From Escherichia coli (GTDB taxonomy: Bacteria; Pseudomonadota; Gammaproteobacteria; Enterobacterales; Enterobacteriaceae), in assembly GCF_024223415.1 (NCBI RefSeq), contig NZ_CP100500.1: a DNA stretch of 64,000 bases. The stretch is one strand, 5' to 3'. The stretch's first letter is position 1, and the number at the start of each line of letters is the position of its first letter. Position numbers and translations under genes: made by a program. Shown piece by piece: positions 1,070 to 63,758 of this stretch. The notes under the pieces are model-generated. The model saw only the letters and a program-made list of their open reading frames with translations, ran no database searches and was not told the origin of the DNA.

Positions 1070-4000
1070 TTACGCCTCCTCTTCATGACGGGCAAAGCGG
1101 CTTTTGGTCCACAATGCCAGGCGGTCGAACAGCAGATAAATCACCGGCGTGGTGAACAGCGTCAGCACCTGGCTGACAATCAGGCCGCCGACCATGCCGA
1201 TACCTAACGGACGACGCAGTTCCGCGCCGACCCCGGTACTCAACATCAGCGGCAGCGCGCCAAGCAGAGCCGCCAGGGTGGTCATCAGGATCGGACGAAA
1301 ACGCAACAGACAAGCCTGGTAGATTGCCTCGCGCGGCGACATGCCTTGCTCGCGCTCGGCAGCCAGCGCGAAGTCGATCATCATGATGGCGTTCTTCTTC
1401 ACGATACCGATCAGCAAAATAATGCCGATAATCGCAATCACATCCAGTTCGCTACCAGCAATCAGCAACGCCAGCAGTGCGCCAACCCCTGCGGTGGGTA
1501 GCGTCGAGAGAATGGTGATCGGGTGAATAAAGCTCTCGTACAGAATGCCGAGCACGATATACATCGCCACCACCGCCGCGACAATCAGCCAGACAGTGCT
1601 GCCCAGCGCCGACTGGAAGGCGAGGGTGCTGCCCTGGAACTGCGTGGTGATATCCACCGGCAGATTCAGCGTCTTTTCGGTGTCCATAATCGCCTGCACC
1701 GCATCGCCCAGCGAATAGTTATCCGGCACGTTAAAGGAGATGGTCGTTACCGGGAACTGATCCAGATGGTTGATGGAGAGCGGCGCAAAACGCTGCTCAA
1801 TTTTGGCAATTGAGCTTAGCGGCACCACGCCGCCGTCGCTGCTGGTCAGGCGAATGGTATCCAGCGCCGCGAGGCCTGGGGTATTTTCGGTGTTGTGCTC
1901 CAGCACCACGCGATACTGGTTGGCCTGAGTATAAATAGTGGAAATCAGCCGCTGACCAAACGCGTTGTACAGGGCGTTATCGACATCCGCCATGCTGATC
2001 CCCAGACGGCTGGCGCTGTCGCGATCAACATTGACATACGCCACCAGCCCTTTGTCCTGCCAGTCGCTGGAGACATCAGAAAGCTGTGGCAGTTGCTGGA
2101 GTTTTTCCATCAACTGTGGCACCCAGGTACTGAGCGCATCCAGTGACGTGGCCTGCAAGGTAAACTGGTACTGGGTGCGGCTGACCTGAGTATCAATAGT
2201 CAGATCCTGCGTTGGTTGCAGGAAGAGATCGACGCCCGGCACTTTATCTACCGCCGTTTGCAGACGGGCGATGACTTTTTGCACCCGATCATCACGTTCA
2301 TCCAACGGTTTGAGGTTGATTTGTAAACGTGCACTGTTCAGCGACGGGTTAGTGCCATCAACGCCAACAAATGAGGTCAGGCTTTGCACTGCCGGATCCT
2401 GCAAAATCACGTCCGCGACCTGGCGTTGTCGCTGGGCCATATTGGCAAAGGAGCTGGATTGCGGTGCCTGCAAAGTGCCCTGAATAATGCCATTGTCCTG
2501 TACCGGGAAGAAACCTTTCGGAATGAACACCCACAGCAGCACGCTAAGCAGCAGCGTGCTGAGTGCCACGCTTAAGGTCAGCCACGGATGATTCAGCACT
2601 TTCGCCAGTCCACGACCATAGGCGGCGATTATCCTGTCGAACATTTTTTCCGAGGCACGGGAGAAGCGGTTCTGTTTACGCAACGACTCCTGGCTGAGCA
2701 TCCGCGCGCACATCATCGGTGTCAGGGTCAGCGACACCACCGCTGAGATCAAAATCGCTACCGCCAGGGTAATAGCAAATTCGCGGAACAGTCGCCCGAC
2801 GATATCGCCCATAAACAGCAGTGGGATCAACACCGCAATCAGCGAGAAGGTCAGCGAGATAATGGTAAAGCCGATTTCACCTGCGCCCTTGAGCGCCGCC
2901 GCCAACGGTTTTTCGCCTTTTTCGATATAGCGGGAAATGTTTTCGATCACTACGATGGCGTCATCGACCACGAATCCGGTGGCGATAGTTAACGCCATCA
3001 GTGTCAGGTTATTGATTGAAAAATCGAGAAACACCATAACCGCAAAAGTGCCGATTAACGACAGCGGTACAGCAACACCGGGAATGATGGTCGCCGGAAT
3101 ATTGCGCAAAAACAGGTAGATAATCATGACTACCAGCGCGATAGCCATCATCAATTCAAACTGAGTATCATCGACGGATGCGCGGATATTGGTGGTGCGA
3201 TCGGAAAGCACTGTCACCTTCACCGATTTCGGCAGACTCTCAGTGAGCTGTGGCAGCATCTGCCGAATGCTGTCGGCGGTGGAGATAATGTTAGCACCGG
3301 GCTGGCGCTGAACATTCATCACAATGGCCTGTTCTTTGTTCGCCCACGCGCCGAGCCAGCTGTTTTCTGCACCTTGCTCTACAGTTGCGACATCGCCCAG
3401 ACGAATTGGCGCGCCGTTCTGGTAGGCGATGATTAGCTGGCGATACTCTTCGGCGGATTGCATCTGGTCGTTCGCGGAAAGCGTGACCGCACGGGAAGGG
3501 CCGTCGAGGCTACCTTTTGCCGAGTTAACGTTAGCGCCGGTAATGGCGGTGCGCACGGTTTCGCTGGTCAGGCCGAGGGCGGCAATCGCCTGAGCGTTAA
3601 GTTTGACGCGAACAGCCGGACGCTGACCGCCGGAAAGCGTCACCAGGCCGACGCCGGAAATCTGCGAGATTTTCTGCGCGACGCGGGTTTCCACCATATC
3701 TTCCACTTGCGTCATCGGCATGGCGGTTGAGGTGACGGCGAGCGTCATGATCGGCGGATCTGCCGGGTTCACTTTGCTGTAAACCGGCGGGTTAGGCAGA
3801 TCGCTCGGTAGCAGGTTAGTGGCGGCGTTAATCGCGGCCTGCACTTCCTGCTCGGCGACATCGAGCGGTAATGTTAGCTGGAACTGTAAGGTGATAACTG
3901 ACGCACCGCCGGAACTTTGCGACGACATCTGTTTCAGGCCAGACATCTGCCCGAACTGGCGCTCGAGCGGCGCGGTAACGGCAGAGGTCATGACATCCGG

Positions 4001-4192
4001 GCTTGCACCTGGGTAAAGCGTGACTACCTGAATGGTCGGATAGTCCACTTCCGGCAGCGCCGAAACGGGCAGGGCGCGATAACCGATAATCCCGGCGAGT
4101 AAGATCGCCACCATCAGCAGCGTGGTGGCGACAGGACGCATAATAAACAGGCGAGACGGGCCGCCTGTGCTGCTCGGGGGTAACACCTGCAT
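1070..4192 (-). CDS. mdtB: RND multidrug efflux transporter MdtB
   Basis: 1040-aa [30 protein letters not shown]... with RND permease architecture; length matches MdtB. Confidence 0.95.
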
Positions 4193-5439
4193 CAGGAGCG
4201 TGCTCCTTTTTTCGCGTATTCGCGGCTGGTGGCTTTCTCTTCTGGAGTGGTGGCGCTCTGGGCTTCCACCACTTCCACTTTCGCCCCTTCGGTCAGGCGA
4301 TCAATGCCGTCTGTCACCACGCGATCGCCCGCAGAAATACCTGCACGGATCACCACTTTCTGACTGTCCTGAATGCCCGGCGTCACCAGATGTTTGCTGA
4401 CCTTGTTTTCACTATTCAGCACCCAGACAAAATGGCCTTCATTGCCCATTTGCAGGGCGGCTGATGGGATCACTACGGCGTTTTGTTCGGTGTCGACTAA
4501 CATGCGCGCGTTAACAAACTGATTGGGAAACAGCGCATCATCCTGATTATTAAAGCGTGCTTTCACTTTAATCGTACCGGTTGTGGCATCGATTTGGTTA
4601 TCGAGACTTAACAGCGTGCCTTCACTTAATTTCTTCGAGTTGGTGCGATCCCAGGCTTCTACCACCAGCGGTTTTCCGGCTTTCTGCGCCTGCACTACGG
4701 TAGCGATATCGCTTTCCGGCAGGGTAAAGACTAAATCGATAGGATGCGTCTGGGTGATCACCACGATCCCGGTGGTATCACCACTGGAGATTTGGTTACC
4801 AACATCAACCTGCTTGAGACCAACGCGACCATCGACTGGTGCGGTAATCCGGCTCCAGTCGAGTTGCAGCTGCGCGCTGGCAACGCTTGCTTCATCAGCC
4901 TTAATGGTGCCTTCGGTTTCACTGACCAGCGCCTGTTGGGCATCCAGCTCCTGGCGGGAAACGAGATTGGTTTTTGCCAGTTGTTGATAACGCGCCAGGT
5001 CACGGCGGGCGTTGGCAAGCGTGGCTTTATCTTTTGCCAGTTGGCCCTGGGCTTGTGCTAATGCAACTTTGAACTGGCTGGGGTCAATTTCTGCCAGTAA
5101 ATCGCCTGCTTTGACCTGCTGGCCTTCCTGGAAATGTAACGCTATCAGTTGGCCGTCCACGCGGCTGCGCACCGTAACGGTATTAGCGGCGGTAATGGTG
5201 CCAAGCCCGGTGAGGTAACGCGGAACTGCCTGTTCTACGGCGGTCGCCGCCTGAACCGGGGCTAATGGGCCGGAACGCATACCACGGCGACCACCCGCTG
5301 GCGATTGCTGCGCTTGTTTCGTCGCCCCTGGGGCTGCACTCCGGGAGTCATTGCGGCCTTGCCAGAACCAGAATGCGGCGATGGCGGCGATAACCACCAC
5401 GATTACGATTACCCAACGGGATTTATAACTGCCTTTCAT
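4192..5439 (-). CDS. mdtA: Efflux membrane fusion protein MdtA
   Basis: ORF track 4192..5586; start trimmed to the ATG giving [16 protein letters not shown]... (415 aa), HlyD-like periplasmic adaptor; stop overlaps the mdtB start. Confidence 0.9.
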
Positions 5440-46450: not shown

Positions 46451-47551
46451 ATGAGTTTTGAAAATTGGTATATAAAAGATATTGAACCATATAAACTGGC
46501 TAGTCATAAAGTATGGGACGATGTTTGCAACCGAGATATATTAAAATTAGATTGGAATGAAGCAACTATTCCTGCTAGTCCGTATGTAAAGAAAAGAATT
46601 TTAGAAACTATTGATAAAATAGAGTTTAGATATTACCCAAACGTAAACAACATGGAGTTGTTAACAGCTATCGCGGGATATACTCAACTCAACATAGAAA
46701 ATATTCAATATTTTCCAAGTTCTGATGCTGCACATGAATATATAGCATCAGTATTCTTAACATCAGAAGATAGAGTGTTAATATTGTCCCCGACATATGA
46801 TAATTTCAGGCTAACCTGTCAAAGTAGAGGGGCGGAAATATCGTATGTTAATTGTTTTGATGGGGCGTTTCAATTCCAGAGTGAATTATTTATAAATGTT
46901 TTGAAAGAAACAAAGCCTAAAATTGCATATATGTGTAACCCTAACAATCCGACGGGTTCAATAATAAGGCGGGAATATATAAAGAAAATATTAACTCTTT
47001 TTCCTGATATCTTGTTTGTTTTAGATGAGGCTTATATTGAATTTTCATCTGGTTCATGTGGTGATTTTGTTAAGGAATATGATAATTTGATAGTATCAAG
47101 AACCTTCTCGAAGGCATTTGCGCTGGCCAATTTTAGGATTGGTTATATATTGGCTTCACCTAAACTTATAGTTTCAATTAATAAAATAAGAAATTCTAAG
47201 AATGTAACGACATTATCACAAGAGGCTGCAGTTGCTGCATTGCATGATTCTCAATATATGCAAGCTTATGTTAATGAGGTGATTGTAGCGCGACAATACT
47301 TTATTGAAGAGATAAATAGAAGGTTTGGAGATAAGCTGATAGCATATGAAAGTCATGGTAATTTTGTTCTTGTAAAATGCTCCTCGGAAATACTAAAAAA
47401 AACATTAATAAAAGGCCTGGAGGAACAAGATATTTTCATAAGAGATTTGTCACACAAGGAGCTCAATGGTTTACATATAAGGATTACTATTGGAACACGG
47501 ACTCAAATGAGGCAGGTGCTTAATGTTATTGAAAATATTATTGGTCAATAA
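46451..47551 (+). CDS. PLP-dependent class I/II aminotransferase-fold enzyme, HisC/CobD-like
   Basis: 366 aa; motifs CNPNNPTG, DEAYIEF and SRTFSKAFALANFRIGY (candidate PLP-lysine); low-GC codon usage. Confidence 0.8.
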   Translation: MSFENWYIKDIEPYKLASHKVWDDVCNRDILKLDWNEATIPASPYVKKRILETIDKIEFRYYPNVNNMELLTAIAGYTQLNIENIQYFPSSDAAHEYIASVFLTSEDRVLILSPTYDNFRLTCQSRGAEISYVNCFDGAFQFQSELFINVLKETKPKIAYMCNPNNPTGSIIRREYIKKILTLFPDILFVLDEAYIEFSSGSCGDFVKEYDNLIVSRTFSKAFALANFRIGYILASPKLIVSINKIRNSKNVTTLSQEAAVAALHDSQYMQAYVNEVIVARQYFIEEINRRFGDKLIAYESHGNFVLVKCSSEILKKTLIKGLEEQDIFIRDLSHKELNGLHIRITIGTRTQMRQVLNVIENIIGQ

Positions 47552-47587
47552 TATGTTTGCAGGCGCTCTTTATTATGTTGGTCAGCG

Positions 47588-48277
47588 ATGAAATATAAAT
47601 ACGCTTTTTTTGATTTTTGTGAAACGTTGGTGGATTTACAAACTGCTGATGATTACATTTCTGATGTGATTATTAAGAAGGAAGGCCGATGGAGTTATAA
47701 GCTTGCGATTATTGGCTTCTTAAGGAATAGATGGGTTAATAAATTATTTAATAAATTGTTTAACAATTATGATAACCCTAAGTCTTTGATTTTGAAGCTG
47801 GTTAAAGGGTTTGACTATGGGGTCTTTTCTGTTGCTGCAGAAGAATATTGTAAAAAACTAATGGAGTATTACTTAATTGATGATGTTATTTCGGAGATGC
47901 TAGAATTAAAAAAAAAGAATTATCAAATAATCATTGTCTCTGGGGGATATGATATATATATAAAGCATTTTTTTTCCTCAGTTGTAGATAAGGTTATAGC
48001 TACCGAGATTGATTTTTCTGATTCTAAGTGTCTGGGGAAAATATCAGGTATTGATTGTTTAGGTGTGAACAAGTTAAACAAAATAAAGAAATATATTGAT
48101 GTCAACACAATAGATTATGAAAATTCCTACGTCTTTTCTGACAGTAAAACAGATTTGCCTCTTTTTTCGTTAGCAAAGAATAAAATTGTCATATCTAAGA
48201 AAAAAAACAAATCGTGGGTTAATGAGCAAAATGAAGAATTTATTGAAAAAGTATGGTGTCCTAAAAAAATATGCTAA
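47588..48277 (+). CDS. HAD-superfamily hydrolase, probable phosphatase
   Basis: 229 aa; HAD motif I-like AFFDFCETL (second Asp replaced by Cys), motif II IVSGG, motif IV-like FSDSKTDLPLF. Confidence 0.7.
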   Translation: MKYKYAFFDFCETLVDLQTADDYISDVIIKKEGRWSYKLAIIGFLRNRWVNKLFNKLFNNYDNPKSLILKLVKGFDYGVFSVAAEEYCKKLMEYYLIDDVISEMLELKKKNYQIIIVSGGYDIYIKHFFSSVVDKVIATEIDFSDSKCLGKISGIDCLGVNKLNKIKKYIDVNTIDYENSYVFSDSKTDLPLFSLAKNKIVISKKKNKSWVNEQNEEFIEKVWCPKKIC

Positions 48278-49145
48278 GAAGTATTATTACTATACTTCTT
48301 CTTTTTTAATGTCAGATGAATTATATATAAAAAGGAAGTTTAAGAAAATTTTCGGATATGCTTTGGATATCAATAATCCAAAAACAATGAATGAAAAGAT
48401 GCAATGGATGAAGTTACATATGCATCCTCAGGAATATAATATTTTTGCAGATAAACTTCTTGTTAGAAAATACGTGGAAGAAAAGATTGGTAAAAATATA
48501 CTAATACCTATTTTTGCAGTATACGAAAGTGAAGCCGAATTAAATATAGATTCTTTGCCTGACGAACCATTTATCATTAAGACGAATCATGATAGTTCTG
48601 GTGGAATAATCGTGAGAAACAAATCAGAACTCAATATAAAGGATGCAAAAAGTTTTTGTCGATTTAATTTGAATAACAATCATTATTATATATCAAGAGA
48701 GAAACATTATAAACATTTAGACAGAAAAATTATTATAGAGAAGCTCCTTCTTACAAAATCCGGAAAAATCCCAAATGATTATAAAATAAATTGTATAAAT
48801 GGGCGTGCTGAATTTATATATTGCTCTATTGATAGAGAGGGGAAAAATTACCGAAAGATTTATGACAGGTCTTGGTGTGAAATGGATTTTAAATGGGGAA
48901 ATAAAGATGAGTTTGAGCATAAATTTACTGGGCCCAATATTGAAAAGCCTGATAATTTAGATAAAATGATTGAGTATGCGGAGATATTATCAATGGGGTT
49001 TCCTTATCTAAGAATAGATTTATACAATGTTGATGGGGAAATATATTTAGGAGAAATAACTATTTATCATGGGGGAGGGTTTGATGTTATTGAGCCAAAA
49101 GAATATGACTTATTTTTTGGTAATAAGATTCATTTAGAAAAATGA
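48222..49145 (+). CDS. TupA-like ATP-grasp amidoligase (start uncertain; ORF track begins at TTG 48186)
   Basis: N-terminal NPKTMNEKMQWMKL matches the conserved P-x-TFNEKIQWLK region of TupA-like ATP-grasp proteins; overlaps the upstream HAD ORF by 56-92 nt in another frame. Confidence 0.7.
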   Translation: MSKMKNLLKKYGVLKKYAKKYYYYTSSFLMSDELYIKRKFKKIFGYALDINNPKTMNEKMQWMKLHMHPQEYNIFADKLLVRKYVEEKIGKNILIPIFAVYESEAELNIDSLPDEPFIIKTNHDSSGGIIVRNKSELNIKDAKSFCRFNLNNNHYYISREKHYKHLDRKIIIEKLLLTKSGKIPNDYKINCINGRAEFIYCSIDREGKNYRKIYDRSWCEMDFKWGNKDEFEHKFTGPNIEKPDNLDKMIEYAEILSMGFPYLRIDLYNVDGEIYLGEITIYHGGGFDVIEPKEYDLFFGNKIHLEK

Positions 49146-53427: not shown

Positions 53428-54690
53428 ATGAGTTCTGGGTTTAATTCTATTGAAAAGAACTTTTCAAGATTTTTATCTTACTTTCCAGGGATAAAAAAAA
53501 TAATTAAAAAAGCTTACATAAGGATAAATTTTTATATCTACAAAAAAGAACATAAAGTAAAAAGTGATTACAGCATCCATACGATTGATATCGATAGTTG
53601 CGAAACTTTTTTTGGATACTATGATAAATGTCCCGATAATGGTAAAGGAGATGTTATCGTTTGTGCATCGACTATATCTACCCACAACATACCTGATCCA
53701 AACAATCCGATTAAATTATATGTGTACAATCTTTGTACTAAAGATAAGGTGTTCATTGCTAATATTTCTGCATATAATTGGCAACAAGGATGTCGTGCTC
53801 ATTGGCTAAACGATGATTTACTTATTTATAACTTTTACTCTCATGAAAAGCGTAATTATTCGTCGAAAATATACTCAATCATAGAGAAAAAACATATAGC
53901 AGAGTTCTCTTTTGCGGTACAAGACAGTTTTCTTGGTAATTATTTTTTATCTATAAACTATTCTCGCTTAATGGCGTTACGCCCAGATTATGGATATAGA
54001 AATAAAAGTTTTTCTTGGGAATTGTTTGATCTGGCTAATGATGGTATATGGAAAGTCGATATTAGCTCTCGTAAGGGAGAATTAATCGTTACATTTTGTG
54101 ATATTATTAATTTTGAGTTTGAAAATAATGATGAGTATAAACATAAAGTTAACCATGTAATGATTTCTCCCGATGGTGAAAAATTTATATTTATACATCG
54201 TTATTATTATAAAGGTAAACGGAATGATAGATTAATGTTGTCAACCAAAGACGGACATTTAATTTCAGTATTAGCTAATAATAAAATGGTTAGTCATTGT
54301 TGTTGGCTTTCCAATGATAAAATTATCGGTTATTTAAGATCTGATAGTGGTGATGATAGTTATTGGGTTATTGATATAAATAATCTGGAGTCATACCAAC
54401 TCTTAGATGGTGAATTACTAAAATATGGCGATGGTCATCCATCGAATTGTAAAAATCTATTAGTGACGGATACATATCCTAATAAGTCAAGATATCAGAA
54501 ATTATTATTAGTCGATATGGATAATGATAATTACCAGGAACTTGGTGAGTTTTTACATGATCTTAGTTTTTCTGATGAGACTAGATGTGACTTACATCCT
54601 CGCTTTTCTCATGATGGCAGCATGATTTTTTTTGATTCAGTTTTTTCTGGAAAACGCAAGTTATGCTATTTACAGTTAATTAATAAATAA
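53428..54690 (+). CDS. Hypothetical protein, possibly beta-propeller-like; function unknown
   Basis: 420 aa, no GT signature recognised; repeated SPDG/SHDG-type strands (MISPDGEKFIFIH, HPRFSHDGSMIFFDS). Confidence 0.55.
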   Translation: MSSGFNSIEKNFSRFLSYFPGIKKIIKKAYIRINFYIYKKEHKVKSDYSIHTIDIDSCETFFGYYDKCPDNGKGDVIVCASTISTHNIPDPNNPIKLYVYNLCTKDKVFIANISAYNWQQGCRAHWLNDDLLIYNFYSHEKRNYSSKIYSIIEKKHIAEFSFAVQDSFLGNYFLSINYSRLMALRPDYGYRNKSFSWELFDLANDGIWKVDISSRKGELIVTFCDIINFEFENNDEYKHKVNHVMISPDGEKFIFIHRYYYKGKRNDRLMLSTKDGHLISVLANNKMVSHCCWLSNDKIIGYLRSDSGDDSYWVIDINNLESYQLLDGELLKYGDGHPSNCKNLLVTDTYPNKSRYQKLLLVDMDNDNYQELGEFLHDLSFSDETRCDLHPRFSHDGSMIFFDSVFSGKRKLCYLQLINK

Positions 54691-54695
54691 AGTGA

Positions 54696-55511
54696 TTGTA
54701 TATGAAAGTCGCAGTCGCAATGTCTGTATATAAGAATGATAATCCTATATACTTAGAGAAAGCCATTAAAAGTATATTGAATCAAACATATAAAAATATC
54801 CATTTATATATAGAGGTCGATGGAGTCATATCTCCACAATTATATCAATGTTTATCCTCTTTTATCTCATGCTCAAATATTAGTATAAATTTTAATAGTG
54901 ATTGTAAAGGATTGGCATTTAGATTAAATAATATTATTGATAAGGTTATATTTGATGGAGGATATTCGTATATTGCAAGAATGGATGCTGATGATATATC
55001 TCGACTCGATAGGATTGAAAAACAAGTAATATTTATGCAGACCCATAAGGATATTTCTGTTGTTGGTTCTGATGTTCTAGAAATAGATGAGGATGATAAT
55101 TTTTTATTTTACAAAAAAATGCATTGTGATCATGAGATCATCGTTCGAGATATTATTAAGAAATGTCCAATAAATCATCCCTCAGCATTTTTTAAAATAT
55201 CTTCATTTTATATAGTTAGATATAATTCCACCTTGAAGAACACACAGGATTATTACTTGTGGATTGATTTTATTTATAATAATTTAAAGATCTCAAACAT
55301 CAATGAGCCTTTGTTAAAATTTAGAGTGAATAGAGATTTTTATTCACGGAGAGGGTTTGATAAAGCTATCAATGATGTAAAATCACGAATATATGCCTTG
55401 CGAAAGTTGAATTGCTATTCACTAAGGAATATATTTCATATATTAATGCTTTTTTTTCTTAGAGTATCTCCGACTGTAATAAAAAAAATTGCATACAATA
55501 GACTTAGATAA
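54696..55511 (+). CDS. Glycosyltransferase family 2-like
   Basis: 271 aa; VAMSVYKNDNPIYLEKAIKSILNQTY and ARMDADDIS motifs; start may be the ATG at 54702. Confidence 0.75.
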   Translation: MYMKVAVAMSVYKNDNPIYLEKAIKSILNQTYKNIHLYIEVDGVISPQLYQCLSSFISCSNISINFNSDCKGLAFRLNNIIDKVIFDGGYSYIARMDADDISRLDRIEKQVIFMQTHKDISVVGSDVLEIDEDDNFLFYKKMHCDHEIIVRDIIKKCPINHPSAFFKISSFYIVRYNSTLKNTQDYYLWIDFIYNNLKISNINEPLLKFRVNRDFYSRRGFDKAINDVKSRIYALRKLNCYSLRNIFHILMLFFLRVSPTVIKKIAYNRLR

Positions 55512-55698: not shown

Positions 55699-57105
55699 AT
55701 GTTAAAGCAACAGATAGGTGTTGTCGGTATGGCAGTGATGGGGCGCAACCTTGCGCTCAATATAGAAAGCTGTGGTTATACCGTCTCTATTTTCAACCGT
55801 TCCCGTGAAAAGACGGAAGAAGTGATTGCCGAAAATCCAGGCAAGAAACTGGTGCCTTACTACACGGTTAAAGAGTTTGTTGAATCTCTGGAAACGCCTC
55901 GTCGCATCCTGTTAATGGTGAAAGCAGGTGCAGGCACGGATGCTGCTATTGATTCCCTAAAACCATACCTCGATAAGGGCGACATCATCATTGATGGTGG
56001 TAACACCTTCTTCCAGGACACAATTCGTCGTAACCGTGAGCTTTCTGCCGAAGGCTTTAACTTCATTGGTACCGGAGTTTCCGGCGGTGAAGAAGGTGCG
56101 CTGAAAGGTCCTTCTATTATGCCCGGTGGCCAGAAAGAAGCCTATGAACTGGTTGCGCCGATCCTGACCAAGATCGCCGCAGTAGCTGAAGACGGTGAGC
56201 CATGCGTTACCTACATTGGTACCGATGGCGCAGGCCACTATGTGAAGATGGTTCACAACGGTATTGAATACGGCGATATGCAGCTGATTGCTGAAGCCTA
56301 TTCGCTGCTTAAAGGTGGCCTGAACCTCACCAACGAAGAACTGGCGCAGACCTTTACCGAGTGGAATAACGGTGAACTGAGTAGCTACCTGATCGACATC
56401 ACCAAAGATATCTTTACTAAAAAAGATGAAGACGGTAACTACCTGGTTGATGTGATTCTGGATGAAGCGGCTAACAAAGGTACCGGTAAATGGACCAGCC
56501 AGAGCGCGCTGGATCTCGGCGAACCGCTGTCGCTGATTACCGAGTCTGTGTTTGCACGTTATATCTCTTCTCTGAAAGATCAGCGCGTTGCCGCATCTAA
56601 AGTTCTCTCTGGCCCGCAAGCACAGCCAGATGGCGACAAGGCTGAGTTCATCGAAAAAGTTCGTCGTGCTCTATATCTGGGCAAAATCGTTTCTTACGCC
56701 CAAGGCTTCTCTCAGCTGCGTGCTGCGTCTGAAGAGTACAACTGGGATCTGAACTACGGCGAAATCGCGAAGATTTTCCGTGCTGGTTGCATCATTCGTG
56801 CGCAGTTCCTTCAGAAAATCACTGATGCATATGCCGAAAATCCGAAGATCGCTAACTTGCTACTGGCTCCGTACTTTAAACAAATTGCCGATGATTATCA
56901 GCAGGCGCTGCGTGATGTCGTTGCTTATGCAGTGCAGAACGGTATCCCGGTTCCTACCTTTGCTGCTGCGGTTGCCTATTACGACAGCTACCGTGCTGCT
57001 GTTCTGCCTGCGAACTTGATCCAGGCGCAGCGTGACTATTTTGGTGCACATACTTATAAGCGCATTGATAAAGCAGGTGTCTTCCATACCGAATGGCTGG
57101 ATTAA
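55699..57105 (+). CDS. gnd: 6-phosphogluconate dehydrogenase (decarboxylating)
   Basis: 468 aa; [16 protein letters not shown] Rossmann motif. Confidence 0.97.
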
Positions 57106-57135
57106 TCTGATTTAAATCAATTAATCGATGCAAGG

Positions 57136-57160
57136 CCCGGAGAAATCCTTCGGGTTTTTT
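57136..57160 (+). terminator. Rho-independent terminator after gnd
   Basis: cccggagaaatccttcggg hairpin (7-bp stem with one G-U pair) followed by tttttt. Confidence 0.6.
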
Positions 57161-57349
57161 ATTATACAAAGTGGCAGGTTATGGCTTTTTTATAATTTAT
57201 GGTTAAAAAGCGATATAATACATAGACGCACAGCAGGATTACTGCCTTGACAGTTCATCCGCATCAGCGTTAAAAATCCCGCAGTAGATGAAGATGTGTT
57301 GGTAGATTAATGACCACTCTAAATGTTTAACCGGAAGAAGTCAGAGCTA

Positions 57350-58516
57350 ATGAAAATAACAATTTCAGGAACAGGTTATGTTGGTCTTTCAAATGGTATT
57401 CTGATTGCGCAAAACCACGAAGTGGTTGCACTGGATATCGTTCAGGCCAAAGTGGACATGCTTAACAAGAAGCAGTCACCGATTGTTGATAAGGAGATTG
57501 AAGAGTATCTGGCGACTAAAGATCTCAATTTCCGCGCTACGACAGATAAGTATGACGCGTATAAAAATGCCGATTACGTTATTATTGCCACGCCTACCGA
57601 TTATGATCCGAAAACGAATTATTTTAATACCTCAAGCGTGGAAACGGTCATTCGCGATGTGACAGAAATTAATCCCAGCGCGGTAATGATTATAAAATCA
57701 ACTATCCCTGTTGGTTTTACAGAGTCTATTAAAGAACGGTTTGGTATTGAAAATGTGATTTTTTCGCCGGAGTTTTTACGCGAAGGGAAAGCACTTTATG
57801 ATAACTTGCATCCATCACGCATAGTGATTGGCGAGCAATCTGACCGCGCAGAACGTTTTGCAGCGTTATTACAGGAAGGCGCTATTAAGCAAGACATACC
57901 AATATTGTTTACTGACTCAACCGAGGCTGAGGCGATTAAACTTTTTGCCAATACTTATCTGGCGATGCGTGTGGCTTATTTTAATGAACTAGATACTTAC
58001 GCTGAAAGTCTGGGTCTTAACTCCCGCCAAATTATTGAGGGAGTTTGCCTTGATCCGCGTATCGGTAATCACTACAATAATCCGTCATTTGGTTATGGTG
58101 GTTATTGTCTGCCGAAAGATACTAAGCAGTTACTGGCAAACTATCAGTCAGTACCGAATAACTTGATCTCAGCAATTGTCGATGCCAATCGCACGCGAAA
58201 AGATTTTATTGCCGATTCTATCCTTGCACGTAAACCGAAAGTTGTTGGCGTCTATCGTCTGATTATGAAGAGTGGTTCGGACAATTTCCGTGCTTCCTCA
58301 ATTCAGGGTATTATGAAGCGAATCAAGGCGAAAGGCGTGCCTGTAATCGTTTATGAGCCAGCTATGAAAGAGGACAATTTTTTCAGGTCGCGCGTGGTAC
58401 GTGATCTGGATGCGTTCAAGCAAGAAGCTGATGTTATTATTTCTAACCGTATGTCTGCCGATCTGGCTGATGTAGCAGATAAGGTTTATACGCGCGACTT
58501 GTTTGGCAATGATTAA
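57350..58516 (+). CDS. ugd: UDP-glucose 6-dehydrogenase
   Basis: ORF track 57323..58516; trimmed to [16 protein letters not shown] (388 aa). Confidence 0.95.
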
Positions 58517-58540
58517 TTATTTTGTTTCATACTAAGAAAA

Positions 58541-58564
58541 GGCCCTAATAAATTAGGGCCTTTT
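58541..58564. terminator. Bidirectional terminator between convergent ugd and gla
   Basis: ggccctaat-aa-attagggcc perfect 9-bp inverted repeat, flanked by aaaa upstream and tttt downstream. Confidence 0.6.
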
Positions 58565-58581
58565 CTTATGATTTTGTAAAA

Positions 58582-59586
58582 TCAAACTTTATAGAAGTTA
58601 CGATACCATTCTACAAAGTTCTTTACCCCCTCTTTAACTGACGTTTCAGGTTTGAATCCTATTACGTCATACAGTGCTTTGGTATCAGCACTGGTTTCCA
58701 GTACATCACCGGGTTGGAGAGGCATCATATTTTTGTTGGCTTCAATACCCAGAGCCTCTTCTAACGCATTGATATAGTCCATCAACTCTACAGGCGAACT
58801 ATTACCAATGTTATAGACACGATATGGTGCTGAACTTGTTGCAGGCGAGCCTGTTTCTACAGCCCACTGTGGATCTTTTTCTGGAATAACATCCTGTAAG
58901 CGAATAATAGCTTCGGCAATATCATCAATATAAGTAAAGTCACGCTTCATTTTGCCGAAGTTGTAAACATCAATGCTTTTACCTTCCAACATGGCTTTAG
59001 TAAATTTAAATAATGCCATATCCGGACGTCCCCATGGACCATAAACCGTAAAGAAACGCAGTCCTGTGGTCGGTAAGCCATACAAATGAGAATATGTATG
59101 GGCCATGAGTTCATTCGCTTTTTTAGTTGCTGCATAAAGTGAAACAGGATGATCTACAGAGTCATCTGTAGAGAAAGGCATCATGCGGTTCATACCATAA
59201 ACAGAACTGGAGGAAGCGTAAAGTAGATGCTGAACATTATTATGGCGGCATCCTTCCAGTATGTTCAGGAATCCAATCAGGTTTGCATCTGCATATGCAT
59301 TGGGATTTTCAAGGGAGTAACGTACACCGGCTTGCGCAGCGAGGTTTATTACGCGATCGAACCGCTCCTCTGCAAACAGTGCTGCCATTTTCTCACGATC
59401 GGCCAGGTCAATTTTATAAAAACTGAAATTGTCGTGCTTGAGTAAATCAAGTCGTGCTTGTTTGAGGTTGACATCGTAATAATCATTTAAGTTGTCAATG
59501 CCTACAACCTGATGACCAGCTGCAAGAAGCCGTTTACTTACATAGAAACCGATAAAGCCAGCAGCTCCCGTAACCAGAAATTTCAT
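58582..59586 (-). CDS. gla: UDP-glucuronate 4-epimerase (NAD-dependent SDR epimerase, Gla/CapI-like)
   Basis: 334 aa; [21 protein letters not shown] Rossmann motif and YxxxK (YAATKKANE); position between ugd and wzz. Confidence 0.8.
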
Positions 59587-59752
59587 TTATTATCCTCTCT
59601 CAGGCTTGATTATAGCCAATCTTCATCTGGCATAACTGAAAGTTAAATCATACCGTTAGACAAGAAAAAAAGATAATCGGTATCAGTTCTAAACATGGCT
59701 GTTTTTTCTGGTAACGTGCTCATTTTACAATCAAAGATGTTCTAAACTGACT

Positions 59753-59848
59753 ATACAAGCCGACGTCATTATTTCCAACCGTATGACAGAAGAGCTTAAG
59801 GATGTGGCAGATAAGGTCTACACCCGCGATCTCTTTGGCAGTGACTAA
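59753..59848 (+). pseudogene. ugd: Remnant of a second ugd 3' end (last ~30 codons) downstream of gla
   Basis: Translates to [31 protein letters not shown], near-identical to the C-terminus of the intact ugd ([29 protein letters not shown]). Confidence 0.75.
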
Positions 59849-59994
59849 CATCTTGTTATCAGGGCGATTTTCGCCCTGATTGTCTTATGTTTCCTTTGTA
59901 ATAATTCATTGTTTTTATCATTTATCCTATAGCATTCATGGCGATTATTGCTAAACTATGGCGACTTAAAATTATTTCGTCCGTTAGGGTAATG

Positions 59995-60972
59995 ATGAGA
60001 GTAGAAAATAATAATCTTTCTGGGCAAAACCATGATCCGGAACAGATTGATTTGATTGATTTACTGGTTCAACTATGGCGCGGCAAGATGACTATCATCA
60101 TTTCTGTCATTGTGGCTCTTGCCCTGGCTATAGGGTATCTGGCCGTTGCCAAAGAAAAGTGGACTTCAACAGCTATCGTTACTCAACCTGATGTGGGGCA
60201 AATCGCTGGTTATAACAATGCCATAAATGTGATTTATGGTTCGGCAGCGCCGAAAGTGTCTGAGATCCAGTCGATGTTAATTGGTCGTTTCAGCACGACA
60301 TTTTCTGCATTAGCAGAAACGCTGGATAATCAGGAAGAACCTGAAAAACTGACCATTGAGCCTACCGTTAAAAATCAGTCATTACCTTTAGCGGTTTCTT
60401 ATGTCGGTGAAACACCTGAAGGTGCGCAGAAACAGCTGGCGCAGTATATCCAGCAAGTTGACGACCAGGTAAATGAAGATCTGGAAAAAGACCTGAAAGA
60501 CAACATCGCGCTGCGTATGAAAAACTTGCAGGATTCGCTGAAGACCCAGGAAGTGGTTGCGCAGGAGCAGAAAGATCTGCGTATCCGTCAGATTCAGGAA
60601 GCGTTGCAGTATGCGAATCAGGCGCAGGTGACAAAGCCACAGGTTCAGCAGACTGAAGATGTGACGCAAGATACGTTGTTCCTTTTGGGGAGCGAAGCGC
60701 TGGAGTCGATGATTAAGCATGAGGCGACCCGTCCGTTGGTGTTCTCATCAAACTACTATCAGACACGTCAAAACCTGCTGGATATCGAAAGCTTAAAGGT
60801 TGATGATCTTGATATTCATGCTTACCGCTATGTAATGAAACCGACGTTACCTATTCGTCGCGATAGTCCGAAAAAGGCAATCACCTTGATTCTGGCGGTG
60901 CTGCTGGGCGGCATGGTTGGCGCGGGGATTGTGCTGGGGCGTAACGCTCTGCGTAATTACAACACGAAGTAA
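59995..60972 (+). CDS. wzzB: O-antigen chain-length determinant WzzB (Cld)
   Basis: ORF track 59938..60972; likely start at the tandem ATGs 59992/59995 (MRVENNNLSGQNHDPEQIDLIDLLVQLWRGK); polysaccharide co-polymerase with two TM segments. Confidence 0.92.
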   Translation: MRVENNNLSGQNHDPEQIDLIDLLVQLWRGKMTIIISVIVALALAIGYLAVAKEKWTSTAIVTQPDVGQIAGYNNAINVIYGSAAPKVSEIQSMLIGRFSTTFSALAETLDNQEEPEKLTIEPTVKNQSLPLAVSYVGETPEGAQKQLAQYIQQVDDQVNEDLEKDLKDNIALRMKNLQDSLKTQEVVAQEQKDLRIRQIQEALQYANQAQVTKPQVQQTEDVTQDTLFLLGSEALESMIKHEATRPLVFSSNYYQTRQNLLDIESLKVDDLDIHAYRYVMKPTLPIRRDSPKKAITLILAVLLGGMVGAGIVLGRNALRNYNTK

Positions 60973-60994
60973 TCTTTTCGGTTTTAAAGAAAAA

Positions 60995-61027
60995 GGGCAG
61001 GGTGGTGACACCTTGCCCGTTTTTTTT
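60995..61027. terminator. Terminator hairpin between convergent wzzB and the his operon
   Basis: gggcagg-N9-ccttgccc stem followed by ttttttt on the plus strand and preceded by an A-run (T-run on the minus strand). Confidence 0.65.
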
Positions 61028-61068
61028 GCCGGATGCGACAACAATATCGCATCCGCTTACCCCGTAAC

Positions 61069-61673
61069 TCACTGATGCCGTTTACGCAGGTTCTCAATTA
61101 CCGTCGTTAAATCCAGATCCTGATCCTGTAACAGCACCAGCAGGTGATACATCAAGTCAGATGCCTCGTTGGTCAGTTCAAAGCGGTCATGCACCGTTGC
61201 GGCCAGTGCGGTTTCCACGCCTTCTTCGCCCACTTTCTGCGCAATGCGTTTGGTGCCGCTGGCATACAGTTTGGCGGTGTAGGAGGTTTCCGGGGCGGCA
61301 GATTTACGTTCGGCGAGTAGTTGTTCCAGTTGATACAGGAACAGCCACTGGTGAGCGGTGTCGCCGAAGCAGCTGCTGGTGCCTTTGTGGCAGGTTGGCC
61401 CGATGGGATTCGCCAGCACCAGTAATGTGTCGTTGTCGCAGTCCGGCGCAATATTTACTACGTTGAGGAAATTACCCGACGTTTCGCCTTTGGTCCACAG
61501 TCGCTGTTTAGTGCGCGAGAAGAAGGTGACTTTGCCGCTTTCGATGGTTTTGTCTAAGGCTTCCGGGTTCATATAGCCCAGCATTAGCACTTCGCCAGAT
61601 ACAGCGTGTTGCACAATCACCGGCATCAGACCGTCGGTTTTTTCCCAATCCAGTTCGCGACGTTGTTGTTCTG

Positions 61674-61680
<7 letters not shown>
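61069..61680 (-). CDS. hisI: Bifunctional phosphoribosyl-AMP cyclohydrolase / phosphoribosyl-ATP pyrophosphatase
   Basis: 203 aa; [25 protein letters not shown]. Confidence 0.95.

Positions 61681-63758
<2,078 letters not shown>

Follow-up and report, generated by a model that had tools for sequence, protein, structure and literature searches.

A leftover ugd tail between a gla-type epimerase gene and wzzB at the edge of an Escherichia coli O-antigen locus

The gnd–wzzB interval and its epimerase gene

The window, the whole 64,000-nucleotide stretch of Escherichia coli DNA that was analysed (contig NZ_CP100500.1), contains the edge of an O-antigen locus, where gnd, ugd, an SDR epimerase gene, a 3' fragment of ugd, wzzB and hisIE follow one another in this order. 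The interval consists of the following parts.

55699..57105, + strand: gnd (6-phosphogluconate dehydrogenase), left flank; 468-aa ORF, 94.5% nucleotide identity to K-12 gnd
57106..57349, no strand: gnd–ugd spacer of the window type, with a terminator-like hairpin at 57132-57158
57350-58516, + strand: intact ugd, whole; its protein passes the NCBIfam equivalog NF011631 (UDP-glucose 6-dehydrogenase) with 793.6 bits against a cut-off of 757
57350..57688, + strand: 5' third of the intact ugd, the segment common to gla-less E. coli haplotypes
57689..58516, + strand: 3' two-thirds of that gene, belonging to the divergent allele with which gla is always linked
58533..58568, no strand: terminator-like hairpin between the convergent ugd and gla, with perfect 17-bp arms (inverted repeat 100% complementary)
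58582..59586, - strand: predicted gla/uge-type UDP-glucuronate 4-epimerase gene; 334-aa ORF, extended SDR, convergent with ugd
59587..59754, - strand: gla leader/promoter region (168 nt), right-hand end of the gla-linked block
59755..59848, + strand: ugd relic (pseudogene fragment) of 94 nt, the last 31 codons and stop of a K-12-type ugd allele
59858..59880, + strand: terminator hairpin (terminator-like site) retained beside the relic from the displaced resident ugd
59995..60972, + strand: wzzB (O-antigen chain-length determinant), right flank; NCBIfam NF012015, 603 bits against a cut-off of 267

The G+C content of ugd and gla is 42%, that of gnd and hisI 49-53%. The gnd–ugd spacer at 57106..57349 cannot be aligned with the K-12 spacer; it shares 92-94% identity with the other gla-positive loci compared, and likewise with the gla-less types L089 and L090. 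The hairpin at 58533..58568 is likely a bidirectional terminator serving both ugd and gla, judging from its position and its perfect arms. A search of 57000-61100 against Rfam returned only three sub-threshold chance matches, all on this ugd/gla hairpin, and a structured RNA or known regulatory element in that region was rejected on these sub-threshold scores. The left-flanking gene is named gndA in the PGAP annotation of the identical strain Combat11I9.

The epimerase ORF of 334 aa lies on the minus strand at 58582-59586, in the convergent orientation that the first-pass annotation had described. Its product carries the Rossmann NAD-binding motif GxxGxxG (GAAGFIG, residues 7-13) and the SDR catalytic motifs SSSSVYG (125-131) and YAATK (151-155), and the region of the latter two aligns with the corresponding stretch of the B. 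cereus UDP-GlcA 4-epimerase 6zl6. Pfam PF01370 (Epimerase) is precomputed for its protein cluster. The best PDB match, at 634 bits over the full length, is 5u4q, which we take to be the K. pneumoniae enzyme; it is followed by the Bacillus cereus entries 6zl6, 6zla and 6zlj (2e-43), ahead of WbgU/WbpP and GalE. These three entries, which bear the depositors' name 'Epimerase domain-containing protein', presumably represent the B. cereus UDP-GlcA 4-epimerase. Relatives in the JGI collection are named 'UDP-glucuronate 4-epimerase'. The top NCBIfam equivalogs, RmlB and GalE, score 147 and 145 bits against cut-offs of 365 and 262; no gla-specific model is present among the best 25 of the 37 matching families, and none of these reaches its cut-off. 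By its motifs and relatives, the gene is of the gla/uge type and is predicted to encode a UDP-glucuronate 4-epimerase of the Gla/Uge/Cap1J class, EC 5.1.3.6. In RefSeq it is named only 'NAD-dependent epimerase'.

The gene, which adjoins ugd in the window, and the scar to its right are carried by an O139:H1 strain and by O155 strains. The O139 O unit contains GalA (PMC4906484), and O155 contains beta-GalA (PMC9912281). GalA is also present in the O antigen of strain LL004 (PMC8657804), where an epimerase gene of 334 aa is placed and oriented like gla. No other gla candidate is annotated between rfb and gnd in the O139 cluster, and none is assigned between galF and gnd in the LL004 cluster. The co-occurrence with GalA covers these three cases only (O139, O155, LL004) and is not a systematic test. 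The 334-aa 'orf5' of E. coli O93 (PMC10191223) was considered as a further gla and rejected, being an unrelated GT-B protein. The 2021 serogroup paper calls a gene of the same size and placement gne and holds that gla 'always maps elsewhere' (PMC8657804), and according to the standard review, too, the genes for UDP-GalA are found in another part of the chromosome (PMC7685785). In Klebsiella, uge adjoins ugd and makes UDP-GalA from UDP-GlcA (PMC3438125). The E. coli protein belongs to the same epimerase family as the product of the K. pneumoniae ugd-uge pair (gla_KP), which lies at the cps/LPS boundary, and is 86% identical in amino acids to the Klebsiella proteins.

The ugd relic and the limits of the gla-linked block

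A second ugd C-terminus with its stop had been read at 59753-59848. Translation of 59753-59851 gives this peptide, and homology to ugd begins at 59755 and stays in register through the stop TAA at 59846-59848. In ungapped comparison over 94 nt, the relic matches the K-12 ugd tail at 88/94 positions and that of the gla-less strain H14 (L089) at 89/94. Its similarity to the intact ugd of the window lies far beyond chance, with a local alignment score of 74 against a mean of 18.0 (sd 2.3) and a maximum of 30 in 1000 shuffles, and a repeat search recovers the pair as a 92-nt direct repeat (58425-58516 and 59757-59848) of 76% identity and 1332 nt spacing. The relic is therefore closer to the gla-less E. 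coli alleles (94-95%) than to its intact neighbour (76%), and the same pattern is found in L002, L084, L085 and L086. Six codons differ between the relic and K-12, five of them synonymously, which indicates that the relic represents another functional-type allele and not a decayed copy of the neighbouring gene. The two ends, first described as a duplicated ugd 3' end, are instead two xenologous alleles that agree at only 71/94 positions in ungapped alignment.

To the right, the relic continues uninterrupted into the terminator that normally follows ugd, then the spacer and wzzB. The window from 59755 to 61700 forms a single BLAST segment against K-12, starting 94 nt before the ugd stop and passing through wzzB and hisI, and the hairpin at 59858..59880 is also found 3' of ugd in K-12 and 3' of the relic in the L084 and L085 types. 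To the left of 59755 lies the gla leader, in which there is no ugd homology. The reading of this segment as a resident ugd tail left behind is in this respect borne out: 59755-59848 is the leftover tail of a displaced K-12-type ugd, of a different allele class from the intact copy. It was also considered as part of an intact ORF, and this was rejected, since no plus-strand ORF of at least 30 aa lies over 59755-59848 and the upstream frame reaches a stop without an in-frame start. A 43-aa minus-strand ORF at 59720-59851 is treated as spurious because the junction types differ by 17 bp in length, which would disrupt it. RefSeq/PGAP labels the relic 'hypothetical protein; incomplete; missing N-terminus', an anonymous partial pseudogene, and a full-text literature search found no description of it.

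At its left end, the gla-linked block begins inside ugd. Against the nearest gla-less haplotype, the L089/L090 type (about 668 genomes), the intact gene differs from L089 by 8 mismatches in the 339 nt before position 57689 and by about 175 in the 828 nt after it, and in all four gla-positive loci tested (window, L084, L085, L091) the switch against L089/L090 falls at the same position. The segment 57350..57688 is 97-99% identical to L089/L090 and to the other gla-positive loci and only 66% identical to K-12. From 57689 to 58516, outside a conserved stretch at 58092-58191, identity is 76-79% to the K-12 and L089 types and 91-100% among gla-positive loci. The suggestion that the ugd allele may have come together with the epimerase gene is upheld in that the divergent ugd travels with gla, with the breakpoint near 57689. 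This breakpoint may represent either the founding crossover or a subsequent one that made the L089-type gla-less haplotype.

At its right end, the block stops at 59754/59755, where the sequences on either side are non-homologous. The gla leader has no match in K-12 and occurs only in gla-positive E. coli (278 genomes); its alignment with Citrobacter sp. FP75 extends no further than 59677. Because the leader has no homologue in gla-less E. coli, the right-hand joint must be illegitimate. The earlier proposal of arrival by homologous recombination would fit the sharp breakpoint within ugd and cannot account for this joint. Insertion of the block as a mobile element (IS or transposon) was rejected, since the gnd–wzzB stretch contains no transposase ORF and since no terminal inverted repeats bracket 57689-59754; the only direct repeat flanking the block is the 92-nt ugd homology.

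Junction variants and distribution

The junction occurs in three variants, which have the leader in common and whose relic end points agree to within about 10-20 nt. In the L084 type (67 genomes) the relic is 107 nt long, 13 nt longer than in the window. The window-type junction equals the L084 type minus 17 bp, whereby the relic lacks its first 13 nt; it is the commonest variant, with roughly 170-180 of about 276 genomes (by subtraction). By this comparison, the joint at 59754/59755 is not the original one, and the window type is derived by the 17-bp deletion. The L085/L086 type (about 31 genomes) has a mutation-dense patch of about 50 nt at the joint, which counts against an explanation by one simple event; a source for the patch in L085-type junctions was searched for and not found. 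The L085 relic is 97% identical to the ugd of the gla-less L090 type, and the relic co-varies with the wzz-side haplotype.

Of 5,426 complete genomes of E. coli, 276 (about 5%) contain the whole set of ugd, gla, relic and wzzB at a coverage of at least 80%. The gla gene at 95% nucleotide identity or more is present in 278 of the 5,426; the leader is carried by 278, of which 276 cover at least 80% of the junction query; about 95% of the species is without gla. Within E. coli, gla diversity amounts to 1.3-3%. The scar adjoins at least six different O loci, namely O139, O87, O158, O155-family, O8/O9-type and that of the window. The scar had been taken to mark a recombination hotspot delimiting the serotype-specific region; this is not supported, as the same scar stands beside several O loci and the block is shared between serogroups. 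A JGI metagenome search with an 18-nt leader motif gave 84 matching stretches, of which 80 were screened; about 19 contigs are homologous, and all of those extending to the junction, roughly 16, have the same collinear layout including the scar. No unscarred copy of this gla allele was found in the 5,426 genomes or in the screened metagenome contigs.

A second gla allele of E. coli, Enterobacter-like and present in 14 genomes (L088), has a different layout, flanked by IS600/IS30, and no ugd relic. Outside Escherichia, the loci examined have the layout gnd-ugd-gla (wzz, where present) hisI, and no second ugd tail was found between gla and wzz in Citrobacter, Enterobacter, Kluyvera, Phytobacter and three further non-Escherichia loci. 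In the Citrobacter and Enterobacter loci the epimerase gene is, as in the window, convergent and directly after ugd, between gnd and wzz/his. The difference is that these non-Escherichia loci have no leftover ugd tail, whereas the gla of E. coli, in about 5% of genomes, is always scarred.

No donor was found. In a collection of 5.8 billion proteins the gla lineage is confined to E. coli; the next relatives of Gla share at most 89% of amino acids (86-89%; 76-78% in nucleotides), with nothing between 89% and the E. coli cluster. The two nearest clusters come from non-Escherichia genomes with the native synteny and no relic, and the same holds for a record labelled Salmonella. A peptide-pattern scan of species-representative genomes, in which other Escherichia species are not properly sampled, gave a best value of 88% aa among the matches listed. 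At 76-78% nucleotide identity, the Klebsiella, Citrobacter and Enterobacter loci are too distant to be the direct donor.

History of the scar

The best explanation, and a probable one, is that the relic marks the right joint of a gla-linked block of about 2.1 kb, acquired in one homology-facilitated illegitimate event and spread afterwards. The block (57689-59754) would comprise the divergent 3' two-thirds of ugd, the bidirectional terminator, gla and its 168-nt leader. One end would have been a homologous crossover inside ugd near nt 340, and the other a non-homologous join about 107 nt before the resident stop codon, so that downstream of gla there remained the tail of the resident ugd with its terminator and the usual spacer to wzzB. 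The chimeric ugd is complete and would make UDP-GlcA, which Gla is predicted to convert to UDP-GalA for GalA-containing O and K antigens, while the relic itself would be functionless. The scarred haplotype would then have spread within E. coli by ordinary homologous exchange along with the neighbouring O-antigen loci, and the 17-bp deletion at the joint would have been gained later, in the lineage of the window. The occurrence of the same scar at several O loci, identical by descent, argues for one old event that was later moved by homologous exchange, and its being common to many serogroups marks the relic as old rather than recent. The evidence points to a scar that is real but ordinary, the product of a single old recombination event and not of a recurrent hotspot.

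The opposite polarity of transfer is unlikely, yet it is a serious reading. Here gnd-ugd-gla-wzz would be ancestral in Escherichia, as in Citrobacter, Enterobacter and Klebsiella, and would persist as a rare polymorphism; a gla-less strain would have supplied the incoming DNA, a K-12-type piece with the ugd tail, the spacer and wzzB, with a homologous right end in wzz/his and an illegitimate left end in the gla leader. In the related genera examined, ugd and gla natively converge between gnd and wzz/hisI; the Gla of E. coli is roughly equidistant from these genera, and its distance is close to that of the neighbouring his genes in the nearest of these loci (79.5% in nucleotides), as expected under vertical descent; and the lineage is known from E. 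coli only, with a diversity of species-level depth. Against this stand the lack of any unscarred copy in the genomes and metagenome contigs, the large gla-less majority, and the low G+C of ugd/gla relative to gnd/hisI, which is usual for imported polysaccharide genes. Of the resident and incoming roles first assigned, the tail as part of a displaced allele is retained; as no donor was found, the gla side is only the likelier of the two to have been the incoming DNA.

Two in-register ugd 3' ends, lying as direct repeats around gla, would also result from target duplication or slippage at the insertion of gla, followed by divergence. This history is extremely improbable: the copies are too dissimilar to each other, the downstream one resembles the ugd tails of gla-less strains, it follows the wzz-side haplotype, and the entire 3' two-thirds of the intact ugd, beyond its tail, is of a different allele class. 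Divergence after duplication cannot account for two tails of this allele-class pattern, and a duplication is already contradicted by it. Repeated independent entry of gla into the ugd–wzz interval, each time cutting ugd at the same place, is scarcely more credible and is regarded as very improbable. The O-locus flanks are indeed highly mosaic, with at least four deep allele classes of ugd and sharp segment boundaries, and more than one form of the junction exists; all forms, however, agree in the leader and almost agree in the relic end point, a simple deletion leads from the long type to the window type, and the one clearly independent acquisition, the Enterobacter-like allele, used IS elements and left no relic.

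A further reading, quite unlikely in our estimation, is that the relic is not fully inert: the 17-bp deletion would have formed a fusion promoter, increased the expression of gla and been favoured by selection, and more broadly the gla block would be an ancient balanced polymorphism native to Escherichia. At the window-type junction, a -35-like hexamer, TTGGAA (59778-59773, within the relic), lies 17 nt from a -10-like TATAGT (59755-59750) at the joint, and the pair is directed toward gla. On that strand, both longer and older types of junction lack a sigma-70-like site of this kind. In a promoter scan the site spanning the junction is found in the window type only, and the number of sites is not above shuffle expectation.

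The preferred history, a block acquired once, resembles known forms of exchange. Homology-facilitated illegitimate recombination, with one homologous anchor and one non-homologous joint, the latter usually at a few bases of microhomology, is known from transformation of Acinetobacter and Streptococcus pneumoniae. The likeness would lie in one boundary within homologous ugd and another that joins unrelated sequences, and in the replacement of a resident stretch by a longer foreign one; here the mechanism is deduced from the product only. Classic population-genetic work on gnd, beside rfb of E. coli, has described hitch-hiking and intergeneric mosaicism. As there, a housekeeping-type gene flanking the O locus (in this case ugd) shows genus-level allele divergence and sharp mosaic boundaries. 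The difference is that the ugd mosaic adds the gain of gla and an illegitimate joint, beyond allelic replacement. Nine O-antigen clusters of E. coli contain gene remnants that have been read as traces of genetic events (PMC7685785). Like the remnants reviewed by Liu et al. (2020, FEMS Microbiol Rev, PMC7685785) in E. coli, Shigella and Salmonella, the ugd relic is a non-functional fragment that past recombination left at the edge of a polysaccharide block; unlike them, it lies outside the galF–gnd cluster, in the ugd–wzz interval.

As an evolutionary trace the scar is modest. It suggests that a gene for UDP-GalA supply entered, or was re-joined to, the standard ugd–wzzB backbone once and that the gla haplotype has since been passed between serogroups. 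The practical value lies in annotation, where the relic stands as an anonymous 'hypothetical protein' and the epimerase under a general name in RefSeq; if gla were recognised in the ugd–wzzB interval, where the relic can serve as a convenient marker of the haplotype, GalA-containing O antigens could be predicted better from genome sequences.

Gene order and the epimerase

In this Escherichia coli window, the interval between gnd and hisIE contains an intact ugd, a convergent epimerase gene (gla) with its leader, and a leftover ugd 3' end (the relic) next to wzzB.

Features of the gnd-hisIE interval
55699-57105, gnd
57350-58516, ugd, intact
58533-58568, perfect hairpin
58582-59586, minus strand, epimerase gene (gla)
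59587-59754, gla leader
59755-59848, ugd fragment (relic)
59858-59880, second hairpin
59995-60972, wzzB
61069-61680, hisIE

Strain Combat11I9 is 100% identical to the window over 57106-59990, and its RefSeq order is galF, O-antigen genes, gndA, ugd, an opposite-strand 'NAD-dependent epimerase', a partial pseudogene, wzzB and hisIE. The gnd gene lies immediately 5' of ugd in every examined locus except the O155-family locus L086 (NZ_AP027759.1, 1-2457), where the last O-antigen gene (serine O-acetyltransferase) and ugd have no annotated gnd between them. In a metagenomic E. coli-like contig (L108, ~1451-4284), ~2.8 kb of additional sequence, which may be an IS insertion, sits at the shared terminator between ugd and gla.

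The 334-aa epimerase carries the SDR motifs GAAGFIG, SSSSVYG and YAATK and matches no curated NCBIfam model at cut-off. Among solved structures it is closest to 5u4q (634 bits, full length), presumably a Klebsiella pneumoniae enzyme; the next PDB matches, chains 6zl6 and 6zla of Bacillus cereus, presumably UDP-glucuronate 4-epimerase, rank above WbgU/WbpP and GalE. In neither case does the depositors' name say so. JGI names close relatives UDP-glucuronate 4-epimerase. In Klebsiella, uge adjoins ugd and its product is UDP-galacturonate (PMC3438125). GalA is present in the O units of O139 (PMC4906484), O155 (PMC9912281) and strain LL004 (PMC8657804). An O139:H1 strain and O155 strains have gla and the scar in the same position, and the LL004 epimerase gene has 334 aa and the same position and orientation, a likeness judged by size and placement (PMC8657804). 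The 'gla-like' name given in the first-pass annotation fits both the relatives and these three GalA serogroups; since annotation of the O139 cluster (rfb-gnd) offers no alternative gla candidate, and none is assigned in that of LL004 (galF-gnd; PMC8657804), the label is accepted as a predicted function.

The literature consulted, including PMC7685785, places gla elsewhere on the chromosome, and PMC8657804, stating that it always maps elsewhere, gives the name 'gne' to the 334-aa gene lying between ugd and wzz. The comparison suggests that this LL004 'gne' is gla. The most useful by-product is an annotation point: in the serogroups with GalA that could be checked, gla occupies the ugd-wzzB interval. 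The last two O-cluster genes of the window (53428-55511), a hypothetical protein of 420 aa and a glycosyltransferase of 271 aa, match LL004 orf7 and orf8 (420 and 272 aa; PMC8657804) in order and nearly in size. The cluster starts (46451-49145) with a HisC/CobD-like PLP aminotransferase (TIGR01141, 270 bits, slightly below cut-off), an HAD-IB phosphatase and an ATP-grasp amidoligase (a PGAP name, with no NCBIfam match). These three look like a predicted route that would synthesize an amino alcohol, perhaps one of serinol type, and couple it through an amide to a uronic acid; such a pathway, if true, would fit the need of this strain for ugd and gla.

A displaced ugd 3' end

The segment before wzzB had been read as a second ugd C-terminus, and its translation is correct. 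An independent repeat search recovers 58425-58516 and 59757-59848 as a pair with 76% identity. Neither of the two conditions set for overturning the observation holds, and it stands: the similarity far exceeds chance (local score 74; shuffles 18.0 ± 2.3, maximum 30) and the segment lies in no ORF, the upstream frame being closed and without a start codon. The description of it as a duplicated ugd end is wrong: over 94 nt, the fragment shares 71 positions with the intact neighbouring ugd, 88 with the K-12 ugd tail and 89 with that of the gla-less strain H14. Five of the six codons differing from K-12 are synonymous, so the fragment belongs to another E. coli-type allele. Across its full length, by contrast, the intact window ugd shares only 74.6% identity with that of K-12. 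A single BLAST segment pairs window 59755-61700 with K-12 from 94 nt 5' of the ugd stop through the terminator, spacer, wzzB and hisI. Allele match and collinearity with K-12 together identify the fragment, at the level of sequence, as the tail of a displaced K-12-type ugd that remains joined to its normal downstream sequence; the proposal that a resident tail was left behind is upheld. Gene remnants are a familiar kind of feature at polysaccharide loci (PMC7685785). RefSeq already marks this one as a partial pseudogene without a gene name, and a literature search found no published description of it.

This gla allele, at ≥95% nucleotide identity, occurs in 278 of 5,426 complete E. coli genomes, and 276 contain the whole arrangement of ugd, gla, relic and wzzB; the junction is covered in 276 of the 278 genomes with this leader. 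The adjoining O loci are the window's own, O158, O155-family, O8/O9-type with a his-linked mannan cluster, O139 and O87. Metagenomes add ~19 contigs matching the region, of which the ~16 reaching the junction all have the same collinear layout. A single scar, identical by descent, is common to at least six O loci, which leaves unsupported the suggestion of a recombination hotspot delimiting the serotype-specific region. In the O87 strain NCTC9087 (L182, 13430-14407), annotation marks the wzzB adjoining the scar as a pseudogene, interrupted by an internal stop.

Boundaries and origin of the gla block

The ugd gene of E. coli is deeply mosaic. Compared with K-12, L089 (strain H14), a further allele (L092) and the second gla-linked allele (L088), window ugd (57350-58516) reveals at least four allele classes with sharp segment boundaries. 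Divergence among classes (66-80% nucleotide identity) equals that to ugd of other genera; K-12 ugd stands out as an outlier in its 5' third (66% to the window type), and a conserved 100-nt stretch (58092-58191) keeps ~90% identity across most classes compared.

From the gnd-ugd spacer to about nt 340 of ugd, all gla+ loci are 97-100% identical to the common gla-less L089/L090 haplotype (~668 genomes, counted as the 80-90% identity band). Mismatches to this haplotype number 8 in the 339 nt before 57689 and ~175 in the 828 nt after it, and the switch position is identical in the four gla+ loci tested: the window, L084 (long relic), L085 (patch junction) and L091. On the right, the gla leader is present only in gla+ genomes, and E. 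coli-type ugd homology starts again at 59755. The mismatch jump and this resumption define the gla-linked block as 57689-59754, comprising the last two-thirds of the divergent ugd, the shared terminator, gla and its 168-nt leader. The core proposal of the first-pass annotation, that gla and possibly the ugd allele arrived with a crossover inside ugd, holds, the divergent allele having come with gla. Its route, homologous recombination, suits the left edge, which lies inside homologous sequence, but not the right edge, which cannot be attributed to homologous exchange because the sequences joined there are unrelated. ORF and repeat searches of the window found no transposase or terminal repeats for the block. 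Judged from the product only, the block may have formed by homology-facilitated illegitimate recombination, whose outcome it resembles.

The order gnd-ugd-gla (wzz, where present) hisI is native in Citrobacter, Enterobacter, Kluyvera and Phytobacter and in three other non-Escherichia loci, and no second ugd tail occurs in any of them. In a 5.8-billion-protein collection, the window Gla lineage is labelled E. coli only, with next relatives at ≤89% amino acid identity, and the block shows 74-78% nucleotide identity to every other genus; neither comparison identified a donor. The adjacent his genes are 79.5% identical to the closest such locus, about the same distance as the block. Import from an unsampled lineage and an old Escherichia polymorphism re-joined to a gla-less backbone are mirror images that leave an identical scar. 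The old polymorphism appears unlikely, as 95% of E. coli are gla-less and neither the 5,426 genomes nor the metagenome contigs yielded an unscarred copy, and on these grounds we favour import.

A second E. coli gla allele, in 14 of the 5,426 genomes, is Enterobacter-like, has 75.7% nucleotide identity to window gla and IS600 and IS30 on its flanks, and lacks the relic; it was acquired independently, by another route. In L088 (NZ_CP163042.1, 2264-7168), IS600 and IS30 copies separate this second ugd-gla pair from wzzB, and ugd segments are 86-92% identical to Enterobacter cloacae.

Junction variants

Three junction variants are known. The long form, in 67 genomes, has a 107-nt relic. The window form, the commonest (roughly 170-180 genomes, by subtraction), lacks 17 bp (TAGACCACCTTCAAACA) spanning the original joint. 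Since 13 of these 17 bp match ugd in register, the window form is derived, and the joint 59754/59755 is therefore secondary, not founding. A sigma-70-like site (TTGGAA, 17 nt, TATAGT; 59778-59750, minus strand) spans the deletion joint and is aimed at gla; both longer junction types lack a same-strand equivalent. That this deletion-made site acts as a promoter for gla is nevertheless speculative and improbable, as such matches are no commoner here than in shuffled sequence.

The third form (~31 genomes) has a mutation-dense ~50-nt patch at the joint, for which none of the retrieved loci supplied a source. In this form (3650-3700 in both L085 and L086), the gla leader beside the relic differs from the other types at ~20 of 52 positions, with no indels and with flanks at least 95% identical. 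Both of these patch-form loci, the two examined, have an O8/O9-type cluster 3' of wzzB.
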